Assembly: GCA_003514005.1 (NCBI GenBank)
Contig: DOSJ01000022.1
Span: 13,804-77,803, forward strand
Length of the DNA: 64,000 nucleotides
From: Candidatus Falkowbacteria bacterium
GTDB taxonomy: Bacteria; Patescibacteriota; Patescibacteriia; Patescibacteriales; UBA12075
Direction of reading: 5' to 3'
Part shown: positions 26,879-63,685 of the stretch, in pieces
Layout of the letters: each line of letters begins with the position of its first letter
Numbering within the stretch: position 1 is the first letter of the stretch
Program-made: the position numbers and the translations under genes
The notes under the pieces: model-generated
Database searches by the model: none
Told to the model about the DNA's origin: nothing
What the model saw: only the letters and a program-made list of their open reading frames with translations

Positions 26879-26930
26879 GTTTCTTCTCCTTTTTCAAAAT
26901 ATATATTTAAGAGCAAAAAACAAATATTTT

Positions 26931-26968
26931 ATATATACTATATAGCATATAAGCTATATTTTGTCAAG
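26931..26968 (-). promoter_or_regulatory. sigma70-like promoter (extended -35 CTTGACAAAAT, -10 TATATA)
   Basis: Reverse complement reads CTTGACA-17nt-TATATA about 60 nt upstream of the ATG at 26878. Confidence 0.5.
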
Positions 26969-27040
26969 TCTATTGACAAGGTTCGATTTCCTTCCTCCCA
27001 CACCAAAAATCACAGCTAATATTAGCCGTGATTATTCTCG

Positions 27041-27111
27041 CACGGGATGTAGGAATCGAACCCACGCTAGAGGTTTTGGAAACCCCTGTACTACCATTAT
27101 ACTAATCCCGC
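27041..27111 (-). tRNA. trnW: tRNA-Trp (anticodon CCA)
   Basis: Reverse complement folds as a cloverleaf: acceptor GCGGGAT/ATCCCGT, D-arm GTAT-AATGGTA-GTAC, anticodon arm GGGGT-TTCCAAA-ACCTC, T-arm GTGGG-TTCGATT-CCTAC. CCA 3' end not encoded. Confidence 0.8.
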
Positions 27112-27134
27112 CCCGCCCTTCGCGAAGGGCGGGG
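27111..27134. repeat. GC-rich perfect palindrome CCCCGCCCTT-CGCG-AAGGGCGGGG abutting tRNA-Trp 5' end
   Basis: 10-bp stem with 4-nt loop. Only strongly GC-rich element in this AT-rich region. Confidence 0.85.
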
Positions 27135-27188
27135 CTGGCCCCGGTCCGACGCAATAAAGGTTTACCCCGCCCCTCACGAGGAGCTGGG

Positions 27189-27467
27189 TTATTTTATTTT
27201 TAATCTTTTTAATAATCCTACGTATGCTGAACCGAATTGTTTTAGTTTTTTTTCTCTCTCAAGGGCTAAATTATTAGTCTGATAAGATTCGTAATATATT
27301 AATTCTAGTGGTCTTCTATGTTTTGTTGATTCAACTAGTCCTTGTTGATGCTGAGCAAATCGCCTAGACAAGTCAGAACTATATCCAATATAAAACTTTT
27401 TATCTCTTCCACTGTGTAATAAATAAACATAATACATAGGAATACCATCTAATTTCAAATATCCCAT
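27189..27467 (-). CDS. GIY-YIG nuclease family protein
   Basis: YYVYLLHS...KFYIGYSSDLSRRFAQH matches the GIY...YIG motif pair in a 92-aa protein. Confidence 0.7.
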   Translation of the reverse strand: MGYLKLDGIPMYYVYLLHSGRDKKFYIGYSSDLSRRFAQHQQGLVESTKHRRPLELIYYESYQTNNLALEREKKLKQFGSAYVGLLKRLKIK

Positions 27468-27499
27468 TCCTATTCCCTAAGTACCTATGCCCTAATTAC

Positions 27500-27889
27500 C
27501 TACTCGCCTATCTTCTCCAAAATATCCGGTGTCTTTTTCAAAATATATTCAAAACGCTCAATTGATTTTCCACTCACTTCATCAAAGAGCGGTGTACCGT
27601 CGGTATAAAAAGTATCCATCGCATCACCATAGCGATTTAGATTGTTATCAGTCAACCATTTCTCGATTTTTTCTTTTTGCTCAGTTGTCAAATCCTCAGC
27701 TCCAGGTGGTGCAACATTAAAACTATTATTTTTGGATTTTGTTGTTGATTCGGTTTCCTGTGAATTTGTTTCCGTATTCGTGCCATCAAAAAAAATCTCA
27801 CCAACCCTTTGATCAAGCCACTTTAATTTTGTGCAACCGGAAACAGAAATCATTAAAATCAAAGCAAATATAAAACGACCAATTTTCAT
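27500..27889 (-). CDS. small lipoprotein
   Basis: Lipobox ISVSGC after an N-terminal signal peptide. Confidence 0.4.
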   Translation of the reverse strand: MKIGRFIFALILMISVSGCTKLKWLDQRVGEIFFDGTNTETNSQETESTTKSKNNSFNVAPPGAEDLTTEQKEKIEKWLTDNNLNRYGDAMDTFYTDGTPLFDEVSGKSIERFEYILKKTPDILEKIGE

Positions 27890-27936
27890 AGCTTAATATA
27901 ATAAATAATATTAAATCGAAAATCCGAAATCGAAAA

Positions 27937-28092
27937 TTACTTAGTTTCCTTATGAAGAGCGTGCTTGTTGCAAAACTTGCAGAACTTGTTCATCTGAAGT
28001 CTTTCTTTCAATGTTTTCTTATTCTTCCGTGAAAAATAATTAACACGCTTGCATTCTGTGCACTCTAATTTTATCATGTTATCTTGTGACAT
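27937..28092 (-). CDS. rpmG: 50S ribosomal protein L33
   Basis: Translation [51 protein letters not shown] has the L33 Cys-x2-Cys...Cys-x2-Cys zinc ribbon and a HKETK C-terminus. Below the 60-aa cutoff of the supplied track. Confidence 0.75.
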
Positions 28093-28221
28093 ACAAACAG
28101 AATATTATAAAACAGACGGATAGTCTGCTTTATATATAATTAATATTTACTCCCATATAATAATATATTCGAGCAAATAAGTCAAATTATTATGATTAGC
28201 TAATATTAAACAAAAAAATCT

Positions 28222-28611
28222 TTATTTTTTCCATAGCCCATGCAGATTGCAATATGCGCGCGCTTCAAAATTTTCCGCTGTAACACAGAATTTTGCCATT
28301 GCTTCTACACCTGGTTTTAGATATTCGCGGTAAACTTTACCGTCGGCAATGATTTCGATCCATTCAATAAAATGCTCCTCTGTCATCGGATGCGCGACTT
28401 CGCCGATTCTAACAGTGTAGCCGCATTCGTTTTTCTCAATTACCGGCACATGTTTTTCATGCGAAGCATCTTCGGTATTTTCGGATCGCAAAATCATTGG
28501 CTGGCCGCAACAGACAAGTTCACCAGCACCTTCGTGCACCATCTCAACGATGTTGCCGCAGATGTTGCATTTGTAGATTTGATTTAGAATAGTCATATTT
28601 TTATAAGCCAC
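28222..28611 (-). CDS. dfx: desulfoferrodoxin (superoxide reductase)
   Basis: N-terminal desulforedoxin-like CxxC...CC site (CNICGN...VCC). C-terminal neelaredoxin-type domain with HVPVI and EHFIEWIE. Confidence 0.8.
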
Positions 28612-28620
28612 GTTCTTTTT

Positions 28621-28718
28621 GTCATTTCGAAGCGAAGCGAGAAATCTATAATACGAGACTAGCAGGTAGACAAAGTATTATAGATCTCTCCACTCCGCTT
28701 CGCTCCGGTCGAGATGAC
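28621..28718. repeat. GTCATT...GAGATGAC imperfect palindromic intergenic element (family member 2)
   Basis: Left arm TGTCATTTCGAAGCGAAGCGAGAAATCTATAATAC pairs with right arm GTATTATAGATCTCTCC...GCTTCGCTCC...GAGATGACA. Confidence 0.8.
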
Positions 28719-28744
28719 AAAAAAGAGTGTGTGCTAAATCTTAA

Positions 28745-29272: not shown

Positions 29273-29282
29273 ATTTTTAGGA

Positions 29283-29440
29283 TGGTAGGACTGTAGGCTT
29301 GTAGGCTAGTAGCCTAAGCAAAAAAAATCGTACCAAAAAATTAATTAAAAAATAAAAAAAATAAAACACATCCAACAAACTACCAGCCCACAATCCTACC
29401 CGCCTACAAGCCTACTAGCCTACAAGCCTACCTGCCTACC
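29283..29440. repeat. long inverted repeat of GTAGGCT heptad-like units flanking an A-rich spacer
   Basis: GTAGGCTTGTAGGCTAGTAGGCT at about 29294-29316 and its reverse complement AGCCTACTAGCCTACAAGCCTAC at about 29411-29433, extended by further imperfect CCTAC/GTAGG units. Confidence 0.8.
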
Positions 29441-29443
29441 AGC

Positions 29444-37880: not shown

Positions 37881-38051
37881 CTTTTTTCTCCTTGTTTAGT
37901 TAAAATTTTTGTCAAAGACCGATTTAAAAATATTTATAAGAAATTAGCACATTTTTTGTTTGGTGTCAAGGGGGTTTTACTTACATTAAACAAAAAAAGC
38001 CCCATCACAAGAATAATCTCGCAACAGGGCGTTTTATAAATTTAATACAAG

Positions 38052-38747
38052 TTATTTCTCACTCTCCAACCAAGCCTTCAAGAGAAATATTGTTTCTGTT
38101 TGCAATTTTGCTCGCGCCCAATCTTTTTGCGACTCGGAAAGTACCTCACCAAGTCCATCAAGAATGTGGCGATTTTCCATTTTTTCCAAAAGTTTTATAC
38201 ATTTTAACAAAACGTCTTTGAATGGCATCTTGGCGCGACCCTCAACCAATTCTCTATTTATCGGCCAATTATTTTTTGCAAAAAAATATACATCATAAAC
38301 ATCACGGCTTGTTTTACCTATTCTTTCATACATAGCCATCAGTTTGTTGGCAAACATATCCTCCTGGATCATTACCCGCATTGAAATGCCCAGCAAAGTT
38401 TTTATTTCATATCTAGAACCAAAATCGCGGCGATTAACTTCTATTTTTATATTCTGAGATTTTATATCGTATGAAATTACTGTTACAAGATTGAAACGCT
38501 TGATTCTTGAATCAACAACTTCGCCATAGCCCATGGCTATTTTTTGAATTTTTTCAAACACTTCTTGTTCTTTGGTTTCATCCAAAAGATCTAGGTCAAT
38601 ATCGACAGAATTTCTAGTCAAATCATAAAACATCATGGCGGCTGTTCCACCCTTAAAACCCAGATAAGGCGAAAGCGAAGAATCGGAAAATATATCTTTC
38701 AAAATTTGCAATAATATATTCTTGTGTTTCGGATAATCTAAAGTCAT
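38052..38747 (-). CDS. AbiEii/DUF1814-family nucleotidyltransferase toxin
   Basis: GFKGGTAAMMFYDLTRNSVDIDLD nucleotidyltransferase motif. Confidence 0.65.
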   Translation of the reverse strand: MTLDYPKHKNILLQILKDIFSDSSLSPYLGFKGGTAAMMFYDLTRNSVDIDLDLLDETKEQEVFEKIQKIAMGYGEVVDSRIKRFNLVTVISYDIKSQNIKIEVNRRDFGSRYEIKTLLGISMRVMIQEDMFANKLMAMYERIGKTSRDVYDVYFFAKNNWPINRELVEGRAKMPFKDVLLKCIKLLEKMENRHILDGLGEVLSESQKDWARAKLQTETIFLLKAWLESEK

Positions 38748-39358
38748 ATATTTTTATTTTCTAATTTGTTATCTTGATAATGTTTATAATACATTCGAAC
38801 TTTTTTATCCATTCTCTTATTACGATATATCGGCAAAATTTCAAAAACCTTATCCCAATCCAAAACGTCCATGTGATCAAAATGATATTCCTTGCTAATA
38901 TATATCCGATCCAAAAATGCCCGCTCTTTTGTAGCGATTGAAATATCATTAACGTGCTCTATACCGATAGTATTGCTTAATACATAATCTTTTAATCTTA
39001 CGAAGGATATTTTTTGACCATCAACTTCAATTTCTCTAGTAACATAAGAAGCAACAAAAATATTTCCATAGTATTGAAAATTTATTCCAGCCCGAGTCAA
39101 TACGGTTTCAAAACTGACATACGCAGGCGTATATATGCGCGTAGCCAATTCAAAACGATCATAATTTTTGTCTTTTGCATAAATACCACGATGCACTCTG
39201 ATTAATTTCCCGGTTTTTACATAATTATTTAACCGAACTCTAACATTGTTTTCTGCTTGTTCACCCCATAACAAAACAATGTCTTTTGTGGAAAATACAG
39301 TCTTTGATGATTTTAATAAAATGTCGAAATATTGACCTTTTTTAGAAATATTTTTCAT
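38744..39358 (-). CDS. AbiEi-type antitoxin / transcriptional regulator
   Basis: N-terminal wHTH-like region with KTGKLIRVHRGIYA, characteristic of AbiEi. Confidence 0.55.
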   Translation of the reverse strand: MKNISKKGQYFDILLKSSKTVFSTKDIVLLWGEQAENNVRVRLNNYVKTGKLIRVHRGIYAKDKNYDRFELATRIYTPAYVSFETVLTRAGINFQYYGNIFVASYVTREIEVDGQKISFVRLKDYVLSNTIGIEHVNDISIATKERAFLDRIYISKEYHFDHMDVLDWDKVFEILPIYRNKRMDKKVRMYYKHYQDNKLENKNI

Positions 39359-41081: not shown

Positions 41082-41873
41082 TTGTCGAAAAAAATCGACA
41101 ACAATATAAAAAATATGAATAACGAAATCAAAAACAGTTTAAAAAACCTTGGCTTTCGCAATAACGAAATCAAGGTTTATATGGCACTAACCAGTCTGGG
41201 CGAGGCCAATGCGGCAGAGATTGCCAAAAAAGCTGATTTGCCACGGACGACTGCTATTAGTATTTTGGAAAAATTAAAAGAAGATAATTATTTAACCACG
41301 CATAAATATCGCGGCACTACCAGCTATTGGATTGAATCACCACAAACGCTAGTAAACATTTTTGAACACAAAATCGATATCGCAAATTCTCTTGGCGAAC
41401 TCTTGAACAAAGAATATCGCCAAGAAGCGCACTTCCCTTTTGCGGAAACTTATGATACAAAAACAGGCATCCGGCAGTATATTGAAAAATTTTTATGTAA
41501 GCTAAATAAAAATTCCACTATCTACACAATCGATTCTCCCAAAAGCGGAAATTATGCAAAGATTTTTTCTGATAAGATTAGCGAGGTGATTTTAATCAGC
41601 AAGAAAAAAAGAAATATCTCAACAAAATCTTTGATTCCCTTTGGAACTTATGATGATGATATGATCAAAAAAACTCAAGCGCAAAATATTGAAATCCGCG
41701 AACTGCCAAAAGAAATCACATTCAGTGCTTCACTCTGGCTAACAAACGACACACTTACCCATTTCTCTGGTAACCCCCCGTTCTTGGCTGTAGTCCAGCA
41801 CAAACTGATCGTTGCTAGCATGAAAAGTATTTACGATTTTTTCTGGAGCATTTCTAATAGCCCAAAAAAATAA
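41082..41873 (+). CDS. TrmB-like wHTH transcriptional regulator
   Basis: N-terminal wHTH IKVYMALTSLGEANAAEIAKKADLPRTTAISILEKL. Confidence 0.45.
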   Translation: MSKKIDNNIKNMNNEIKNSLKNLGFRNNEIKVYMALTSLGEANAAEIAKKADLPRTTAISILEKLKEDNYLTTHKYRGTTSYWIESPQTLVNIFEHKIDIANSLGELLNKEYRQEAHFPFAETYDTKTGIRQYIEKFLCKLNKNSTIYTIDSPKSGNYAKIFSDKISEVILISKKKRNISTKSLIPFGTYDDDMIKKTQAQNIEIRELPKEITFSASLWLTNDTLTHFSGNPPFLAVVQHKLIVASMKSIYDFFWSISNSPKK

Positions 41874-43982: not shown

Positions 43983-44126
43983 AACACTACCTCCGTTTTT
44001 AATTGTTTTCTATTATTAATTTTTCAAAGATCATTTCTCCTTGCTGAAATAAACTATACTTATAATTTATTTTAGTAAAGATGGCAGGGAAGGAATTTTT
44101 TTCACTTCCCTGCCGTGTTTTGAATA

Positions 44127-44924
44127 TTATCCCCTAAAACCCTTTTTTGTCTGTAGAGCGAGAAAAAAATTACTGTTTTCCAGTACAACAATCTTTAATT
44201 TTACTGGGTGTTTTTTAACAATAATCATGCCACCGTCGCGAACAACGTCTAGTTTTTGACCATCACCAAATAATAAGGCACTACCGGGCGGACGGCAAGG
44301 TGCTACTTCAATTTTTATGATTGAATTATCAGACACAATCAATGGTCGAGTATTACAAACGGTCGGGCAAATCGTTGTTATTATAAATATTGACTGCACA
44401 TCGGGTTCGCAAATAGGACCTCCAGCGCCTTGATTATAGCCAGTTGAGCCAGTTGGAGTGCTAACAATTACACCATTTGCCTTTAAACTATCATGCACTA
44501 GAATATCATTTTTCCAAATAGTATAATATGGAACACCTTCGGAACCTTCAAAATATACGTCATTGACTAGCGGCCCAAATTCTTTACCGCCATATTTAAG
44601 CATGAGGCCAAGGCGTTCTTCGATTCTAAAATTCCCTTGCAAAAATTCCGATATTGGCTTTTCCCAATCCGTAATATGACCATAGGTTAAAAAACCAACA
44701 TTTCCCGCATTAATCGATAAAACTGGGATACCAAGTTTTGAACACGCCGATGCAGTCCTCATTAAATTAGAATCTCCGCCAAAAGTAATTTCATATTCCG
44801 GCTTGTCTTCCCTTTTAACAATATCATCTCCGTGTTTTTTCAACCAAATCTTAATATCATTAAAAATTTGCAAATTATTTCCTTCTTGTGCCTTATACGG
44901 ATCAATGCTCATTGAAATTCTCAT
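44127..44924 (-). CDS. nadK: NAD+ kinase
   Basis: GGDG-type motif region (FGGDSN), NVGFLT motif, C-terminal STPTGSTGYNQGAGGPI. Confidence 0.8.
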   Translation of the reverse strand: MRISMSIDPYKAQEGNNLQIFNDIKIWLKKHGDDIVKREDKPEYEITFGGDSNLMRTASACSKLGIPVLSINAGNVGFLTYGHITDWEKPISEFLQGNFRIEERLGLMLKYGGKEFGPLVNDVYFEGSEGVPYYTIWKNDILVHDSLKANGVIVSTPTGSTGYNQGAGGPICEPDVQSIFIITTICPTVCNTRPLIVSDNSIIKIEVAPCRPPGSALLFGDGQKLDVVRDGGMIIVKKHPVKLKIVVLENSNFFLALQTKKGFRG

Positions 44925-45060
44925 ATTCTCTCCTTTATTAATTGTTATTCAATTGTTAAAAATTCCCTCCCTTAATAAAAATATCTTACTCTAAAAATAT
45001 TTTTAGTAAAGGCCGGTAAAGAAAGCTGGGTTTAGCTTTCTTTACCGGGGTATTGATAGA

Positions 45061-46644
45061 TTACCTCACCTGTTTCAAGGCTTCTTCTCTGATTTTACTT
45101 CTCTTTTGACGCAAGGCCTTTGTCATGGCAATACCGGTTTTGTTTTCACCAATATCTCTAGTAAAATCAGGTCCAAGCGTTTTTCGCTGTAAACTTGATC
45201 TTTCCACGCCATTTTGAATTGCTAATGACCGCGCTAATGATTCATGTGTATACTCGGGATTGAAAAATGGTTTTCCAGGATTTGTTAATCCGTCGTACAA
45301 TAACACTTTTTGACTTGAATAGTTTGGCGGTGCGCTTTCTCCTTTTTCTCCCAGAATGTAAACGCCGGTATCATTATTTATAAACCATTCAACACGGCCA
45401 GGGACAGATTGTTTCATTGTGTCATCGAGACATATTTTCATTGTCTCAACTGTGTCAATTGGTTCTTTTGGAGTACCGTCATGGAATAAACAAGCTTTAT
45501 TGGCCACTTCAAGCGCTCTCCTTGGTCCAATGAATGCACCACCGGCTCCATGAATTGCACGCTCTTTGGAAAGGCCATACTGCTTACGTTTTTTCTCTGC
45601 CTCCAGCACGTCCAAGGGTTTGTGTCCATCTTCAAAAACAACATTAATCATTTTTCCCTCGTCTTGCAGAACTGTTAAATCATGCATTCCGAGTTTTAAT
45701 GTATCTCCGCTGTCCGGACGTTCCGCAAACGGTGCCGGATAACCTTCTCCTAACAGTTGCTGTAAATCTTTAAACCCATAATCATGCTTGATAATATCAA
45801 GTAGCACAGTGCAGTATGGTCCGAGTTCAGAGCCTAATAAAGCCCGCAATGAATCAATGAATTTTTTCCATTGCTGATAAAAGCAATGTCCCGTGGTGCC
45901 CGCACTCTTGAATGGAGCGCCATTGATAAACGCACCAAGATCATTTGACGTGGAAATAATACCACCACCAATCAACATCGCCAAAAGCATATCGTCACTA
46001 AACTCACAATTCTGCAAAGCACGGAAAGCGACTTCAATAAATCGCCAAGGATCGCCTAGTACTTCGGCAAATTGCGCGGCAATGGTTGCCACATGGGTTA
46101 ATTGCCCAATCTGAATATACATTGGTTCATTTACCCATACCGCCGGTTTTTCACCATATATTTCCGCAATCGGAAATGGTACGCCGGTAAATACAGCCCC
46201 TTCTCCAACACATTCAATCCGTATCGGCAAGTAGCCATCAAAATCATCAACAACATGGTGCCAGTATTCAGCATTAAACTGCCGAGGATGACCATTGTGT
46301 TTACCGGATTGAAAATCAGCGACCAAGTCAACTTCATTATGCGTAATCTGATGACTCAAAAATTCCAACCATTTCCAGAATCCAGCCGCAACCGTAAACC
46401 CACCAAGCTGTTTTCGAACTAACACGTGATGCGCCGCATATTTTTTTCCCGGCAAGCAAGCCATAAAATGCTCATAGTTATCACTTAACACCAATGGAAT
46501 GTTTTTGGCAATCATCTTTCTCAGCCATTGCGGAATTTTCATAAAATCTTCGTATCTACTCGGTAACTTACCGTACCCAAAATGCTTTAGAAGTAAATTG
46601 TTTGCCTCTGACATGTCCTTTCCATAATTTATGTATGAACTCAT
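45061..46644 (-). CDS. nicotinamide/nicotinate phosphoribosyltransferase family protein (NAMPT-like)
   Basis: About 527 aa from the Met at 46644. The longer track ORF to 46803 would overlap the upstream GNAT gene by 143 nt. Type II PRTase-like length and motifs in an NAD-salvage neighbourhood. Confidence 0.5.
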   Translation of the reverse strand: MSSYINYGKDMSEANNLLLKHFGYGKLPSRYEDFMKIPQWLRKMIAKNIPLVLSDNYEHFMACLPGKKYAAHHVLVRKQLGGFTVAAGFWKWLEFLSHQITHNEVDLVADFQSGKHNGHPRQFNAEYWHHVVDDFDGYLPIRIECVGEGAVFTGVPFPIAEIYGEKPAVWVNEPMYIQIGQLTHVATIAAQFAEVLGDPWRFIEVAFRALQNCEFSDDMLLAMLIGGGIISTSNDLGAFINGAPFKSAGTTGHCFYQQWKKFIDSLRALLGSELGPYCTVLLDIIKHDYGFKDLQQLLGEGYPAPFAERPDSGDTLKLGMHDLTVLQDEGKMINVVFEDGHKPLDVLEAEKKRKQYGLSKERAIHGAGGAFIGPRRALEVANKACLFHDGTPKEPIDTVETMKICLDDTMKQSVPGRVEWFINNDTGVYILGEKGESAPPNYSSQKVLLYDGLTNPGKPFFNPEYTHESLARSLAIQNGVERSSLQRKTLGPDFTRDIGENKTGIAMTKALRQKRSKIREEALKQVR

Positions 46645-46660
46645 TTTTATGTTCTCCTTT

Positions 46661-47176
46661 TCAACTTGGTTTAACCGCAGAAAATACCAATAAATCATAA
46701 AATTGTTTTGCCAACTTGTAGCGTCCGCGCAAAATGCCGTCACAGTTAAAATCGGACAGGCTTTTGCATACTTCAACCATATACTCATCACACTCTGGTA
46801 CATTTATATAGACTGTGTTTAACTTTAATTCAGCAAATGCTATTTTTAACAAAACATTTATTGCCGATTTTTCAAAAACCATATTTTGAAAAGCCGGAAA
46901 TATCATAATTCCCAATCTGGCATTTTCCATAATAGTATCAATCTCATGAAGTCCGATTGTTCCAATCGCATCACCAGATGTATACTGGCGTATTATAAAC
47001 AGTTTATCGGTTTCACTTTGACACATTTTTTTCAAATATGCTTGTTCAGATTGTAGACCAAATGGCTCTGAGAAAAAAGCAATATTTGCTCCTACTCCAC
47101 CATTTATGCCATCCAGTATTTCTTCTGCATGACAGGCTTCTGCCCTTGATAAAAAAATCCTCCTTTCATCAGACAT
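46661..47176 (-). CDS. GNAT-like acetyltransferase
   Basis: 171 aa with GNAT-like beta/alpha pattern. Confidence 0.35.
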   Translation of the reverse strand: MSDERRIFLSRAEACHAEEILDGINGGVGANIAFFSEPFGLQSEQAYLKKMCQSETDKLFIIRQYTSGDAIGTIGLHEIDTIMENARLGIMIFPAFQNMVFEKSAINVLLKIAFAELKLNTVYINVPECDEYMVEVCKSLSDFNCDGILRGRYKLAKQFYDLLVFSAVKPS

Positions 47177-47206
47177 TTCAAATCCCCCTTCTATTAAATT
47201 GTTATG

Positions 47207-47319
47207 TAAAGATCATCCGGCTTATTTAGTTTTTTAAATAAGCCGAGAAAGCTTTATCCAAATATCTTTTGGGTAAAATTTTCTATTGGGCAGTAGTGAG
47301 TTTTTTCACTACTGCCCAG
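47207..47319. repeat. about 110-bp direct repeat copy 1 (two hairpins)
   Basis: Near-identical to 48715-48816. Contains hairpins CGGCTTATTT-AGTTTTTT-AAATAAGCCG and GGGCAGTAGTGA-GTTTTTT-CACTACTGCCC. Confidence 0.9.
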
Positions 47320-47335
47320 TTTTTTGTTTATTGCT

Positions 47336-48214
47336 CTACGAGAAAAAATTAAAGGCTTTTTTATAAATTTCCTTATGGTGATCGATACCAAACTTAGGAA
47401 CACCTTTCTCAGTATCCCAGACAAAAATATCATCAGCATCACTACCGGCTTGGAACATCTTCTTTAAAAGCTCTTCTGACAATACCCCTTCGTAAGGAAT
47501 AACGGCAGTAATCGCAGTTGTTTCATTAACCCTTTTTTTATTCAGGTGTTTGATTTTTTCATCTTCACCCGTTACAAATTCGCCAAGGGAGAAAAGTTCA
47601 GTATTGATGATCCTACCCCCAAGCTGAATCACAACTCTTTTGTTCATTAAGTTCGGATTGTCCATATCTTCAGTTGTAACTGGCAATATTTTTATCGCCG
47701 CTTCATCCAGTGATTCATGGAGCAAAGCTTCAAACGGTGTCTGAAATTTATAACCAACAACATCACGATGACCGCCGATAAATGCTGGTTTCCCTTTCCC
47801 AGGATCATCTTTGCGGATAATACCGACAAAAAAAGTTTTCAAATTAATATCCTCAAAAAACGGAACAAAATCAACAGTCAGCACCGGCAATGGATACTCG
47901 ATGTTTCCCATTAATGCTATGTAATAATAATCATAATTATCACCTTCTCGGCTTTTAACAACCGATATTACATCTCCATAAGGTCCGAATAGCCCCCAAT
48001 AATTATAATGCGGAGTTATTAATTTTTCCACATACGCTAATTCCGCCTCAGGCGTTCTGTCATCCGATTTTTTGCAATCAATATAATTCATAAAAAAATC
48101 CTCTGGTCTCACACTTATTCTGTCTTTTGCAAGACTCTTTATCTCTTCATTATTATGAACGTGCGTTACAGAGATAATTTTCCCCATTTTTCCAAACACC
48201 AAATAATGAAACAT
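47336..48214 (-). CDS. hypothetical protein with degenerate Nudix-like segment
   Basis: 292-aa ORF. GGHRDVVGYKFQTPFEALLHESLDEAAI loosely resembles a Nudix box. Confidence 0.3.
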   Translation of the reverse strand: MFHYLVFGKMGKIISVTHVHNNEEIKSLAKDRISVRPEDFFMNYIDCKKSDDRTPEAELAYVEKLITPHYNYWGLFGPYGDVISVVKSREGDNYDYYYIALMGNIEYPLPVLTVDFVPFFEDINLKTFFVGIIRKDDPGKGKPAFIGGHRDVVGYKFQTPFEALLHESLDEAAIKILPVTTEDMDNPNLMNKRVVIQLGGRIINTELFSLGEFVTGEDEKIKHLNKKRVNETTAITAVIPYEGVLSEELLKKMFQAGSDADDIFVWDTEKGVPKFGIDHHKEIYKKAFNFFS

Positions 48215-48223
48215 GCTTCCTCC

Positions 48224-48676
48224 TTATCGTTTTTTAGTTAATCTTGATTTTCTCAAAACATCATTAACAATTCGATTATTATTTTTCCAAACCTTTTTTC
48301 GTATCCGCTTCGTCTGCTTTTTACTCTTGCCAAATATACCAAGCTCATTTTCATCCACTATTTTCGGTAATTCATCAATCCTAAATGTCTTCATGATTGG
48401 AAAGATGTCATCCGCAATGCAATTGAATAAATCCAAATCATTCTCTACGTCTCCAAAAACGATACTGCCTGGTCTGAGAACTGGATTAGCACCTGCCCCT
48501 ATTACCAAAATTCCAGAACAATGTCCGATTGAGCTTGTCATCAACTTTTCTTCTTCGCATTTACTTTTGACGAATTCAACAATCCCGCGTATATCGTCTT
48601 CGGTTAATAAAAAATACTGATCCAAAGCGCAATGTTTGTATCGCTCTAAAATTTCATCAACAATCCGATCGTTCAT
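48224..48676 (-). CDS. hypothetical protein with basic C-terminal tail
   Basis: 150-aa ORF, C-terminal KKQTKRIRKKVWKNNNRIV. Confidence 0.3.
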   Translation of the reverse strand: MNDRIVDEILERYKHCALDQYFLLTEDDIRGIVEFVKSKCEEEKLMTSSIGHCSGILVIGAGANPVLRPGSIVFGDVENDLDLFNCIADDIFPIMKTFRIDELPKIVDENELGIFGKSKKQTKRIRKKVWKNNNRIVNDVLRKSRLTKKR

Positions 48677-48714
48677 ATTCGCTCCTTTGTCATTTAGATA
48701 ATTTATTTTAATTT

Positions 48715-48816
48715 AAAGATCGTCCGGCTTATTTAGTTTTTTAAATAAGCCGAGAAAGCTTTATCCAAATTAGCTTTGGGTAAAATTTTCTTTGGGCAGT
48801 AGTGAGTTTTTTTTCA
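48715..48816. repeat. about 110-bp direct repeat copy 2 (two hairpins)
   Basis: Same two hairpins as copy 1. Together the copies bracket the 47336-48676 two-gene unit. Confidence 0.9.
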
Positions 48817-48994
48817 CTACTGCCCGACTATTACTACATGCAGAGTATTACACATTCTTGGTCCGGTATTCCGGAGCTTAAGACTCTATCAAACTGCAAA
48901 TCAAATGTAGAAGAAAAGTTTTCTGAATCAGTTAAAACAAATCTTTTATCTGAATCAACAATCTTCGGTACTATTTCCTCGACAATCTCAATCT

Positions 48995-50755
48995 TTATGC
49001 CACCATTTTTTTTGTGCATAATCGCTCCTTTGGATCAGTTAAATTTAATGATTCTATTTCTTTTTTCATTTCCTTATACACATGTTTTTTTAATTCAAGA
49101 AAAAATTCCAGTGTGTTGAAATGCGGAATATTACTTCCGATATTCCTGTGGCAACGCAAAGGCAGTACATCATCATCTGCTGTAAACCCTAGTCTTTCGT
49201 CAATTAACCGTGCAGACAAATACACTCTGCGTGCCGCCTGAAAAAGCTCCTCTTCGTTTATTTCGCCATATACTTGCTCATACAAACCGGCAATGGCGCC
49301 GAGGCTGGGCTTGGCAAATTTGCAAAGGCCAATCAGATCATACAAGATAATATTGCTACCGCGTTTGCAATTTTCCGCCCATTCTTCCAGACTGTTTTCC
49401 GCGTCCGGATACCACGCACGATTGTAGGTGTCCATGCTCATGTGTAGGCCGGCAACCGCAAAGGCATAACCGGGATTCACATTCCCTAAATAGCCAGGGA
49501 GTTCCAGGCCTTTTACATGCAGGGCATACGAATGGTCATAACCGCTAACCCGCATAACACCTTCACTCAAAGTGTCCTTTCCCTCTCCGATTTTTTTTGC
49601 CAATGAATAAGCATACGCAAAATCGCCGAAACGATTATCTCTTTCCATGGCAAACGCAATCGCGCCGCCAAGTGAAATCGTGTCCATGCCCATCTCATCG
49701 CCAATTGTTATCAACTGCATAATTTGCCGCAGATCAAATATTCCGATATTCGGCCCGAGCAGAGCGCCCGGCTCATAATCAATCTTGCCCAGGATATTTT
49801 CCTTTTCACAAACCTCTTTCCAGCACTTAATCGTACAACCGGTGCAACCCTTGGTTTTTACTGTTAGGCCGTCTTCTGCCACTTTCTCGGAATAAAGCTT
49901 TTCCACTCTTTCCCTATACAAAGGTGTATTGGATTTTGTGAAGTTATCAAACAACCCAAGACCCAATAATGGCAGCCCCTCTATATTCGAAGCAAAAGTT
50001 CCTTTTTCAGTATATTTTTTTGATTTTGGCGAAGCAACAATCTCTTTGTTAATCGCCTTGGCATCAAGCTTGTGCTTCCCTCCTCCACGCTTGACTACAA
50101 TTCCCAGTAAATTTTTACTGCCCAAAACAGCACCAAATCCACCTCGGCCAAGAAAGCGCATATGACCGCTTTTACCTTTGATATCGTCGCTTGTACTAAT
50201 AGCGACATTGGCAAAACGCACTTTGTTTTCTCCGGCTGTTCCGATAACAGCAAACGCCGCGTTTTGATAAATTTCAGACAGAACCCGAATTTTATCTTTT
50301 GTTGTTTTGCCGATTAATCCTTTTGCCGGTAAAATCCTGACACCATCTTCACCTATCTCCAGAAACATCGGCTCGTTCGCCTTGCCTGTGATAAGCAAGG
50401 AATCAATGCCCGTACTTTTTAAATACGGACCAAAATCACCACTGGCTGCGGAATAATAGATTCCGTTACTGCCACTGCGACTGGTTTTTAAGGGACTGAG
50501 TCCGCTTAAAAAAACGCGACGAGCAGATATCACCGAACTTCCGGTAATAAATCCCAGATCAAACGACAGCATACTTCTTGTGTCATAAGCATCGTCCAAA
50601 TCAGAATGATTAAAAAGTTGCTGACCCACAGCATTTATCCCCCTGGAAACACCACCAAGCCTTTCTTCAACTGACGTGTTTTTCAAATCAACATCTGTTC
50701 TTTTAATATTTCCGGAACACAAGTTGATTGCTATGCGCTGATAACCATCCATCAC
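48995..50755 (-). CDS. aldehyde:ferredoxin oxidoreductase family protein
   Basis: About 590 aa, N-terminal AOR_N-like region, Gly-rich GRGGFGAVLGSKNL motif and C-terminal domain typical of tungsten/molybdopterin AORs. Confidence 0.65.
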   Translation of the reverse strand: MMDGYQRIAINLCSGNIKRTDVDLKNTSVEERLGGVSRGINAVGQQLFNHSDLDDAYDTRSMLSFDLGFITGSSVISARRVFLSGLSPLKTSRSGSNGIYYSAASGDFGPYLKSTGIDSLLITGKANEPMFLEIGEDGVRILPAKGLIGKTTKDKIRVLSEIYQNAAFAVIGTAGENKVRFANVAISTSDDIKGKSGHMRFLGRGGFGAVLGSKNLLGIVVKRGGGKHKLDAKAINKEIVASPKSKKYTEKGTFASNIEGLPLLGLGLFDNFTKSNTPLYRERVEKLYSEKVAEDGLTVKTKGCTGCTIKCWKEVCEKENILGKIDYEPGALLGPNIGIFDLRQIMQLITIGDEMGMDTISLGGAIAFAMERDNRFGDFAYAYSLAKKIGEGKDTLSEGVMRVSGYDHSYALHVKGLELPGYLGNVNPGYAFAVAGLHMSMDTYNRAWYPDAENSLEEWAENCKRGSNIILYDLIGLCKFAKPSLGAIAGLYEQVYGEINEEELFQAARRVYLSARLIDERLGFTADDDVLPLRCHRNIGSNIPHFNTLEFFLELKKHVYKEMKKEIESLNLTDPKERLCTKKMVA

Positions 50756-50939
50756 ATTCTCCTTTATAATTTTGTTTTTCTTATATTATTTAAAGATCCA
50801 GACCTCAAACAAAACCGCTTAAGGCCAAAAATTTTTCTCTAAAGTTATTTAGGGAAAAGTTTTTTAAGAAAATACGAGAAAGGTTTAATAGTTTTTTTAT
50901 TAAACCTTTCTCGTTAATATTTTTTTCGATTTTCAATTA

Positions 50940-53422: not shown

Positions 53423-53710
53423 TGCCTCCTCCTTTTTAGCTTATTGTTTTTATCAAAGATCAATGCCCGAAAAAACTTTTTCAGACAATAATTAATGATA
53501 AAAATCCTTTTAAATTAGCATAATTCTATTATTTTGTCAAGATTGCAATATTTACTTAGTGTATATATAACACTATATTATACTTATTTTATTTTCTTGT
53601 CAAGAAAAAAGAAACTCATTATTATTTTTACTAATATTAAATATTTTTTGTAAATAAAAACTCTATAACCTTTTTTAGGAGGTTATAGAGTTAATGGGGT
53701 TAATTGGTTT

Positions 53711-63516: not shown

Positions 63517-63685
63517 TTGTAAAGATCAATTAAATTTTTACAATCTGTATTTATTTATATAAACACAAAATAATAAAAATTTTCCTATTTTAATTTCAAA
63601 AATTAGCAGAATTTAATACAAATGTCAAGTTTCGACATAATTTCTTTATTTGTGTAAAAACAACACTATCAAAACCCAAAAATTT

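Follow-up and report, generated by a model that had tools for sequence, protein, structure and literature searches.

A 64,000-nucleotide (nt) stretch of contig DOSJ01000022.1, from the genome of a Candidatus Falkowbacteria bacterium (assembly GCA_003514005.1), carries two nearly identical direct repeats on either side of a pair of genes in a cluster for nicotinamide adenine dinucleotide (NAD) salvage. This stretch is called the window below, and all coordinates are positions in it unless a related locus is named. The question that the locus raises is what such repeats are for. A first reading of the window, made from its letters alone (the sequence-only reading), took them for a dual terminator that had been duplicated with the insertion of a two-gene cassette, or for a substrate of its excision, or perhaps for riboregulatory 3' elements. 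On balance, we favor the view that they are paralogous intercistronic structured RNA modules in an NrtR-controlled NAD-salvage operon, with a role in processing, stability, or translation. We are fairly confident that the repeats are paralogues under structural constraint that lie between cistrons and have equivalents in relatives; we are less confident that they work through mRNA processing, stabilization, or translational insulation, which we infer from their form and position.

The module is found three times in the operon, namely before the gene for an aldehyde ferredoxin oxidoreductase (AFOR), before a pair of genes for proteins of 150 and 292 amino acids (aa), and before a pair of genes for a GNAT acetyltransferase and a NAMPT-like phosphoribosyltransferase. 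Three other genomes of the candidate phyla radiation (CPR) have this layout ahead of the equivalent gene unit, with stems kept by compensatory and G-U changes. To our knowledge, no pure culture of CPR bacteria is possible, and next to nothing is known about their post-transcriptional regulation. The locus offers a compact and testable case: an NrtR-controlled NAD operon with conserved multi-hairpin modules absent from Rfam, one of which was recently duplicated next to lineage-specific genes.

The repeats and their hairpins

A repeat search combined with blastn delimited two direct copies, at 47198-47319 (copy 1) and 48705-48825 (copy 2), which align over 122 nt with 91% identity (E 1e-43), lie 1507 nt apart from start to start, and share one fully identical block of 44 nt. 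The near-identical direct repeats of the sequence-only reading are therefore borne out; the limits that it gave, 47207 and 48816, are slightly short at two ends, and the outer hairpin of copy 2 reaches 48825. Copy 1 separates the gene for the 292-aa Nudix-like protein from the GNAT gene, and copy 2 separates a 61-aa open reading frame (ORF), which follows the AFOR gene, from the 150-aa ORFan. As had been read, the two copies flank the ORFs at 47336-48214 and 48224-48676, both of which are on the minus strand. Indeed, that strand carries every gene between 53422 and 42145; the repeats are therefore spacers between cistrons, to be read in reverse complement.

Both copies fold strongly (z -7.2 for copy 1 and -7.7 for copy 2). 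The arms of the outer hairpin, GGGCAGTAGTGA/TCACTACTGCCC, are exact in both copies (four matches in the window against 0.04 expected), as are those of the inner hairpin, CGGCTTATTTA/TAAATAAGCCG (two matches against 0 expected), and both palindromes are found only in the two repeat copies within the window. The two strong hairpins that had been reported for each copy thus stand, but a third one between them, here called hpM, had been overlooked.

When each spacer is folded separately on the coding strand, the order of the parts is hp1, 2 nt, hpM, an abutting hp2, and a single-stranded tail. In copies 1 and 2, hp1 begins 8-18 nt past the upstream stop codon and has a perfect 12-bp stem, hpM consists of 5-1-5-1-5 bp, and hp2 is an 11-bp stem directly abutting hpM. 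Downstream of hp2 comes GGA(U/C)GAUCUUUA(C/A)AU, and 38-45 nt further on the start codon of the next gene, with a Shine-Dalgarno (SD) sequence before it. In copy 1, hp1 lies at 47288-47317 (loop AAAAAC; 18 nt past the stop codon of the 292-aa gene), hpM at 47246-47284 (two 1x1 A/C mismatches, and compensatory changes relative to the third copy described below), hp2 at 47218-47245, and the tail at 47196-47217, with the motif UGAUCUUUA at 47207-47215, 38 nt ahead of the GNAT start codon. In copy 2, hp1 lies at 48794-48825 (the 12-bp stem of copy 1, but with 2 nt more in the loop; 8 nt past the stop codon of the 61-aa ORF), hpM at 48753-48791 (stems identical to those of copy 1, four of the five loop bases different), hp2 at 48725-48752, and the tail at 48703-48724, with the motif CGAUCUUUA at 48714-48722, 45 nt ahead of the start codon of the 150-aa gene.

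The distribution of the differences between the two copies is instructive. They number 8-10 and are confined to the approximately 42 unpaired positions, leaving the 76 paired ones untouched: indels of 2 nt in the hp1 loop and 1 nt in the hp1-hpM linker, and substitutions in the hpM loop (four), just past hp2 (one), and in the tail (one to three). If differences fell uniformly over the 118 nt, the chance of finding none in the stems would be about 3e-4 (counting eight events) to 6e-3 (counting five). The stems have therefore been constrained since copies 1 and 2 separated. On the coding strand, the 5' edge of the repeat is exactly the first base of hp1, and the 3' edge fades about 10-15 nt past the tail motif, ahead of the SD sequence; these edges indicate that the duplicated unit is the structured module itself and not an arbitrary segment.

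The idea of a dual terminator fares less well. A T-run had been noted after each hairpin, but on the plus strand one is present only after the outer hairpin of copy 1 (AGTTTTTTGTTT); the outer hairpin of copy 2 is followed by GACTATTAC and the inner hairpin of both copies by GAGAAAGCTTTATCC, and most of the T-runs seen earlier are hairpin loops. Neither copy has a U-tract next to any of its hairpins on the coding (minus) strand, where AAUAGAAAAUUUU or AAAGAAAAUUUU comes after hp1 and GAUGAUCUUUA or GACGAUCUUUA after hp2. Moreover, the genes downstream lack promoters of their own and therefore depend on transcription that reads through the repeats.

A third copy and its equivalents in other genomes

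A covariance model trained on copies 1 and 2 alone matched a third spacer of the operon (37.4 bits, E 1e-6). This spacer, at 50756-50939 and designated IGR_A, lies on the same strand upstream of the AFOR gene and folds on its own into the same layout (z -6.2). Its hp1, a 17-bp stem followed by UAUUUUCUU, is located at 50874-50914, after a gene of the isochorismatase family, and the rest of this diverged paralogue is at 50780-50866 (hpM, hp2, and the tail GGAUCUUUAAAU); hpM is again 5-1-5-1-5 and abuts an 11-bp hp2, and the tail reads UGGAUCUUUAAAU. The same model also matched a spacer (30.6 bits, E 6.5e-5) in L019, the locus of the closest related genome (GCA_030630485.1), whose NAMPT-like protein is 77% identical to that of the window. 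The L019 element occupies the orthologous spacer, which separates the isochorismatase gene from a pair of genes for a 304-aa protein and the NAMPT-like protein.

These four sequences (copies 1 and 2, IGR_A, and L019) were aligned on the model, because MAFFT shifted the 5' arm of IGR_A by one column. Across 26 pairs, 99% of the cells form standard pairs and 8 of the 26 pairs are changed on both sides, whereas controls with slid partners pair in just 28-62%. The hp2 of IGR_A keeps all 11 pairs, four of them as G-U. On the other strand these G-U pairs would be C-A mismatches, and the conserved structure therefore belongs to the sense-strand RNA.

The same G-U pairs, together with those of L019, weigh against a plus-strand feature, that is, a repeat that encodes or terminates an antisense small RNA. 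Read on the plus strand, copy 1 has in its hp1 a terminator of textbook form (16 pairs followed by TTTTTGTTTA), and a promoter-like TTGTCA-N16-TAATTT at 48687-48714, at the edge of copy 2, points antisense into that copy. However, the terminator tail is confined to copy 1 and the promoter-like site to copy 2, and the nearest plus-strand gene found, of the TrmB family (41082-41873), is about 5 kb off. We regard this explanation as scarcely credible. The candidate in which hp2 is an operator for NrtR or another transcription factor was rejected: the motif is wrong, and IGR_A keeps the pairing through G-U and not the sequence.

Copies 1 and 2 are 91% identical to each other and roughly 60% identical to IGR_A, which dates their duplication or homogenization as recent; in other words, they are either a recent intragenomic duplication or were homogenized by gene conversion.

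The layout of hp1, hpM, and hp2 recurs in six independently folded spacers (z -4.4 to -7.7): copies 1 and 2, IGR_A, L019, and two more distant CPR loci, L015 and L032, the latter from a Pacebacteria genome. In all six, an hpM of 15-17 bp abuts an hp2 of 10-13 bp. The L015 element precedes a gene for nicotinate phosphoribosyltransferase (NAPRTase; z -7.6) and the L032 element precedes a GNAT-Nudix-NAMPT-like unit (z -4.4); in both, hpM has 16-17 bp with a single 1x1 mismatch. Their model scores, 31 and 25 bits, are no higher than those of reverse-strand matches at such loci, and we count these two elements as supportive, not proven.

Transcription of the operon and the role of the modules

In the coding direction, Pfam assigns the genes around the repeats as follows: ADP-ribosylglycohydrolase, an adenylyltransferase-like protein for nicotinamide mononucleotide (NMN), and the isochorismatase-family protein; then, after IGR_A, AFOR and the 61-aa ORF, which overlap (48834-50755); after copy 2, the 150-aa and 292-aa proteins; and after copy 1, GNAT (46661-47176), which overlaps the start of the NAMPT-like gene (45061-46698), followed by NAD kinase, a 297-aa TIM-barrel protein, and NAD synthetase. 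The likely start of this transcription unit is a region at 53512-53603 on the minus strand with two canonical sigma-70 promoters and an NrtR box. The promoters are TTGACA-N14-TGCTAATTT at 53540-53512, a form that recurs at 63628-63600, and TTGACA-N17-TATAAT at 53603-53575. The true promoters of the locus are thus close to consensus (TTGACA-N14-TGnTAATTT, with an extended -10), and the same form is seen in L019. Near each canonical promoter there is a palindrome, TTAGTGTA-N5-(A/T)ACACTA, with boxes at 53559-53573 (the core of the box in the start region) and 63652-63666. The NrtR operator is a 21-bp palindrome with the core GT-N7-AC in NAD regulons (PMC2330246); the boxes of the window fit this definition, and the nrtR gene lies just past the end of the window. 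Palindromes resembling NrtR boxes are also seen in relatives (L019 41-55 and 772-786; L015 5211-5225; L022 7207-7244), where they too adjoin near-consensus promoters with an extended -10 (TTGACA-N14-TGCTAATTT). The repeats share with NrtR operators the context of an NrtR-regulated NAD cluster and a palindromic DNA sequence, but the boxes are outside the repeats, and hp2 does not fit the motif and does not keep its sequence in IGR_A.

A motif scan of the window found no NrtR box in the repeats, and a consensus scan found no sigma-70 promoter in either of them. Further, from 53512 to 39641 the minus strand has no match to TTGACA (one mismatch allowed)-N16-18-TAnnnT. Most simply, the genes from ADP-ribosylglycohydrolase to NAD synthetase would form a single transcription unit of about 11 kb that NrtR represses. 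The suggestion that the repeats are riboregulatory elements, and duplicated regulatory DNA, is supported, probably at the level of RNA; they act as intercistronic spacers or 5' leaders, and their description as 3' elements is not supported as it was put.

The promoter evidence also bears on a transcriptional insulator, in which the repeat would be the terminator of the upstream gene (hp1, perhaps hp2) joined to an internal promoter and duplicated together with an inserted gene. The precedent is the PeSL cassette of T4-type phages, a repeated intergenic module of about 100 nt with a stem-loop that flanks ORFans (PMC2839356, PMC4122927). The resemblance is considerable: a stable stem-loop, repeats next to an ORFan (as one of the flanked genes is, and as found with PeSLs; PMC2839356), modular gain and loss of genes, and neighboring copies between which recombination could excise genes. 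It also fits an insulator that hp1 stands 8-18 nt past the upstream stop codons, that the repeat ends about 25-30 nt ahead of the ribosome-binding site, close to a plausible position for a transcription start, and that hp2 scored as weakly terminator-like on the minus strand. On the contrary, PeSLs carry a consensus sigma-70 early promoter and a working terminator, whereas neither repeat nor IGR_A has a sigma-70-like promoter at a locus whose true promoters are close to consensus, and hp1 and hp2 of the two copies lack an adjacent U-tract on the sense strand. The compensatory changes and G-U pairs speak for transcription of hpM and hp2. The tail motif itself lies downstream of canonical promoters in three 5' untranslated regions (UTRs), so it is not a -10 box, a candidate that we ruled out. 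The repeats also differ from PeSLs in being part of a bacterial chromosome, in having yielded no mini-circle or deletion variant in the assemblies examined, and in flanking one gene (that of the 292-aa protein) that is conserved and not an ORFan. We give the insulator a small chance.

The tail deserves separate attention. Its consensus in the modules is YGRUCUUUA, about 40 nt ahead of the next start codon. Six of the nine YGRUCUUUR sites in the window, as well as the variant in IGR_A, are on the sense strand, in intercistronic spacers or 5' UTRs of genes at 37-64 kb (minus-strand sites at 37913, 44025, 47207, 48714, 50788, 53454, and 63520), and the six sites for which a distance was measured (five YGRUCUUUR sites and the IGR_A variant) are 35-50 nt upstream of a start codon led by an SD sequence. 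The motif is found at equivalent places in L019 and in another related locus, L014. We take it as a candidate processing or recognition site. That it is the start of a mini-ORF or leader peptide (AUG AUC UUU in several members) is unlikely; copy 2 reads ACG there, and IGR_A lacks a start codon.

The tail and the stems might instead form a regulated leader, in which hpM, hp2, and the tail would sense a ligand or protein and tune the phosphoribosyltransferase units to NAD-related metabolites. The element does precede a NAMPT-like or NAPRTase unit in four CPR genomes, its stems covary, its tail sequence is conserved, and weak pairing of the tail with the SD sequence downstream of it is possible in some members. 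However, the duplexes of tail and SD sequence reach just -3 to -5 kcal/mol and are mostly no better than those of shuffled tails. Conservation does not extend to the loops and internal mismatches, not even in the near-identical copies; the long, nearly perfect stems have no conserved junction nucleotides, unlike known aptamers; the number and shape of the hairpins differ among spacers; and the element also precedes AFOR and the ORFan. Rfam 15 at the gathering score returned only tRNA-Trp for the window and no NAD+ riboswitch class, and an E-value scan of 47100-48900 gave only sub-threshold chance matches. We therefore consider a regulated leader improbable. We are similarly doubtful of a broader proposal, namely that hpM, hp2, and the tail represent an undescribed class of cis-regulatory RNA of CPR NAD operons, recognized by a protein or metabolite so as to set expression of the NAMPT-like or NAPRTase unit, that also serves as a portable junction for gene gain and loss.

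The modules are better viewed as a new family within a known kind of element. Stable hairpins that stabilize or direct the processing of polycistronic mRNAs between cistrons include the repetitive extragenic palindromic (REP) sequences of the Escherichia coli malE-malF spacer, the RNase III sites between early genes of phage T7, and the hairpins of the puf operon. Like them, the modules are stable irregular hairpins between the cistrons of one transcript, just past a stop codon and ahead of the next ribosome-binding site, with no promoter of their own and with structure conserved over sequence. An irregular hairpin of about 20 bp or more between the cistrons of a transcript marks RNase III-type sites and REP-type stabilizers, and the hpM of 15-17 bp abutting an hp2 of 10-13 bp, with no promoter between the cistrons, agrees with this. 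They differ from these elements in having no sequence or Rfam relationship to them, in combining three consecutive hairpins with a conserved single-stranded tail, and in being confined, as far as seen, to one CPR NAD-salvage operon instead of being dispersed. By this analogy, the modules are predicted to be cleavage or stabilizer sites.

On the preferred reading of intercistronic RNA modules, transcription would start at the promoters near 53.5 kb and read through the modules, which would act as operon punctuation at the RNA level. The stacked hairpins may be barriers to 3'-exonucleases, substrates of double-strand RNases, or both, and the tail may be a processing or recognition site. Together, hairpins and tail would uncouple the stability or translation of neighboring cistrons, and duplication of a module would have given a lineage-specific arrangement of genes a ready-made junction. 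If the modules do set differential mRNA stability or translation, a minimal genome would be tuning in this way the stoichiometry of a salvage pathway on which it probably depends.

Several points weigh against this reading. Co-transcription and processing are themselves deduced from the sequence, and a promoter for an alternative sigma factor is possible. The hp1 of IGR_A carries a U-tract and could terminate transcription. AT-rich spacers form hairpins easily, reverse-strand matches at the same loci reach about 30 bits, and extra members at L019 6908, L015 8548, and L032 8817 (25-35 bits) are not individually significant. The covariation count comes from only about three independent sequences in an alignment fitted to the model, and YGRUCUUUR, with nine occurrences in the window against 5.7 expected, is enriched only in position and not in total count.

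Structure is not limited to the three modules. All five long spacers of the operon are strongly structured (z -6.6 to -11), and most other spacers of the window have z values of 0 to -2.5. The spacers on either side of the NAD kinase gene (44925-45060 and 43983-44126, the whole region being 43983-45060 on the minus strand) each combine an hp1 with one long imperfect hairpin, and 43983-44126 also has a tail, AUGAUCUUUG. This second recurrent spacer hairpin is found in L014 (2466-2615 and 4504-4700) and L019 (11591-11725) as well; its conserved base, YCUUUACU...AGYAAGGAG, places an SD-like sequence in its 3' arm. Between the window and L019, there is almost no difference in the hp1 that follows the NAMPT-like gene (CCGGTAAAGAAAGC...).

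The flanked genes and gene gain or loss

One of the two genes that the repeats enclose is a member of NAD clusters in relatives and not foreign DNA. The 292-aa protein (47336-48214, minus strand) has five database relatives only, and all those with a readable context are in an NAD-salvage cluster beside a NAPRTase or NAMPT-like gene. The label Nudix-like given to it in the sequence-only reading proved apt: a profile of its family matches Nudix structures of the Protein Data Bank (2fml_A, E 9e-8), including the Nudix half of NadM-Nudix (2qjt), although the Nudix box is degenerate in this family of about 300 aa (HE..EE replaces RE..EE). The members of the family are this protein, P0002-P0005, L019 9073-9987, and L014 5692-6570. 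With its place beside a nicotinamide or nicotinate phosphoribosyltransferase, this Nudix-fold family is an uncharacterized candidate for a gene of NAD metabolism. In L019 the orthologue (304 aa) is 13 nt upstream of the NAMPT-like gene, whereas in the window the pair is split by copy 1 and GNAT.

The 150-aa protein (48224-48676, minus strand) matches only itself among 5.8 billion clusters, and an exhaustive HMMER search adds a single weak partial match. The AFOR gene, the 61-aa ORF, the 150-aa gene, and the GNAT gene are all absent from the NAD loci of L014, L015, L019, and L022; in L032, a GNAT gene precedes the NAMPT-like gene. Compared with L019, one ancestral module corresponds to three in the window, each before a block with lineage-specific genes.

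These observations invite an explanation by recombination, in which the repeats would mark the two ends of a cassette able to move or to be excised (attC-like, of the type of miniature inverted-repeat transposable elements (MITEs), or simple homologous sites) and their main significance would be the gain and loss of two genes. The direct repeats of 122 nt, with their 91% identity and identical block of 44 nt, do flank 1.4 kb that includes an ORFan; the gene content of the cluster is mosaic between lineages; and a copy of the module precedes each lineage-specific gene block. If the modules also guide recombination, this would help to explain the mosaicism. The repeats further recall integron attC sites such as the Vibrio VCR, which likewise measure about 120 nt, show dyad symmetry, and enclose genes that lack promoters and share one orientation. 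However, attC sites have R''/R' core sites (RYYYAAC ... GTTRRRY) and one bulged hairpin, whereas the repeats fold into three separate hairpins and have no GTTRRRY (their ends read ATTGTTATGT / ATTTTAATTT and ...CTGCCCAGTT / ...CTGCCCGACT); there is no array, and no integrase gene was noticed nearby. In contrast to MITEs and REP-like dispersed repeats, the repeats have neither terminal inverted repeats between their ends nor a target-site duplication, and only three copies, all in one operon, are present in about 84 kb (the window and 20 kb more of the contig). In genome and metagenome collections, the former of which do not include the source genome, the hp2 pattern gave only unrelated chance hairpins (confirmed by blastn), and the hp1 pattern had no match in metagenome and viral collections.

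Assemblies made independently from other samples run across each of the repeats in the same order as the window, with 99.7-100% identity; among those examined there is no junction of the 61-aa ORF with GNAT and no other deletion or excision variant of the kind that the sequence-only reading had envisaged. A Logan contig of 1519 nt (SRR6488252_97), seen in 18 samples, was entertained as an excision circle and rejected as a k=31 unitig artefact: it consists of the two genes, and its ends are the last and first 30 nt (k-1) of the identical block of 44 nt. Finally, the 292-aa gene is ancestral to the cluster, and selection on the stems since the duplication implies another function. We judge recombination as the main significance of the repeats to be highly improbable; homologous deletion of the 1.5-kb segment between the copies is possible as a side effect. 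Nor does a foreign two-gene cassette agree with the 292-aa gene being a conserved neighbor of the NAMPT-like or NAPRTase gene in the NAD clusters of relatives. Two findings had been named in advance as telling against a cassette: conservation of the cassette in all relatives, where the 292-aa gene is indeed conserved in relatives, and a terminator family at gene ends throughout the genome, of which the roughly 84 kb hold no sign.

Exact protein matches put the window on contig DMOD01000009.1 of GCA_003453605.1, and the 292-aa protein is on record from Candidatus Falkowbacteria bacterium GW2011_GWC2_38_22, a CPR member. The locus is chromosomal, since the contig carries the genes for GroES/GroEL, CTP synthase, and ribosomal protein L27. 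A phage origin was rejected in view of these housekeeping genes and of the lack of a match in a collection of phage DNA. The NAD-metabolism supercluster to which the operon belongs is unusually large (39912-63492, with nrtR outside the window at L033 9133-9807). It contains three or four NMN-adenylyltransferase-like genes, one fused to a protein kinase and one to a P-loop kinase, genes for the NAMPT-like protein, nicotinamidase, NAD kinase, NadE, ADP-ribosylglycohydrolase, and adenylosuccinate synthetase, a pyruvate-kinase-like gene, and the embedded AFOR gene. At its edge is an AbiEi/AbiEii toxin-antitoxin pair (38052-39358).

Elsewhere in the window, the spacer at 29273-29443 is strongly structured (z -7.9) and contains short tandem repeats (…gaatgccgagtgtcgaatgccgagtgtcgaa…), and a region of about 1.9 kb at 26879-28744 without an ORF of at least 150 aa holds the tRNA-Trp gene (27040-27111). 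The genes at 1-36000 mostly lack an SD sequence and have promoters near the ATG, in a leaderless-like manner, and those from about 37 kb onward have strong AAGGAGG sites almost throughout. This contrast between the halves of the window could reflect two regimes of translation initiation or a horizontally acquired NAD island.

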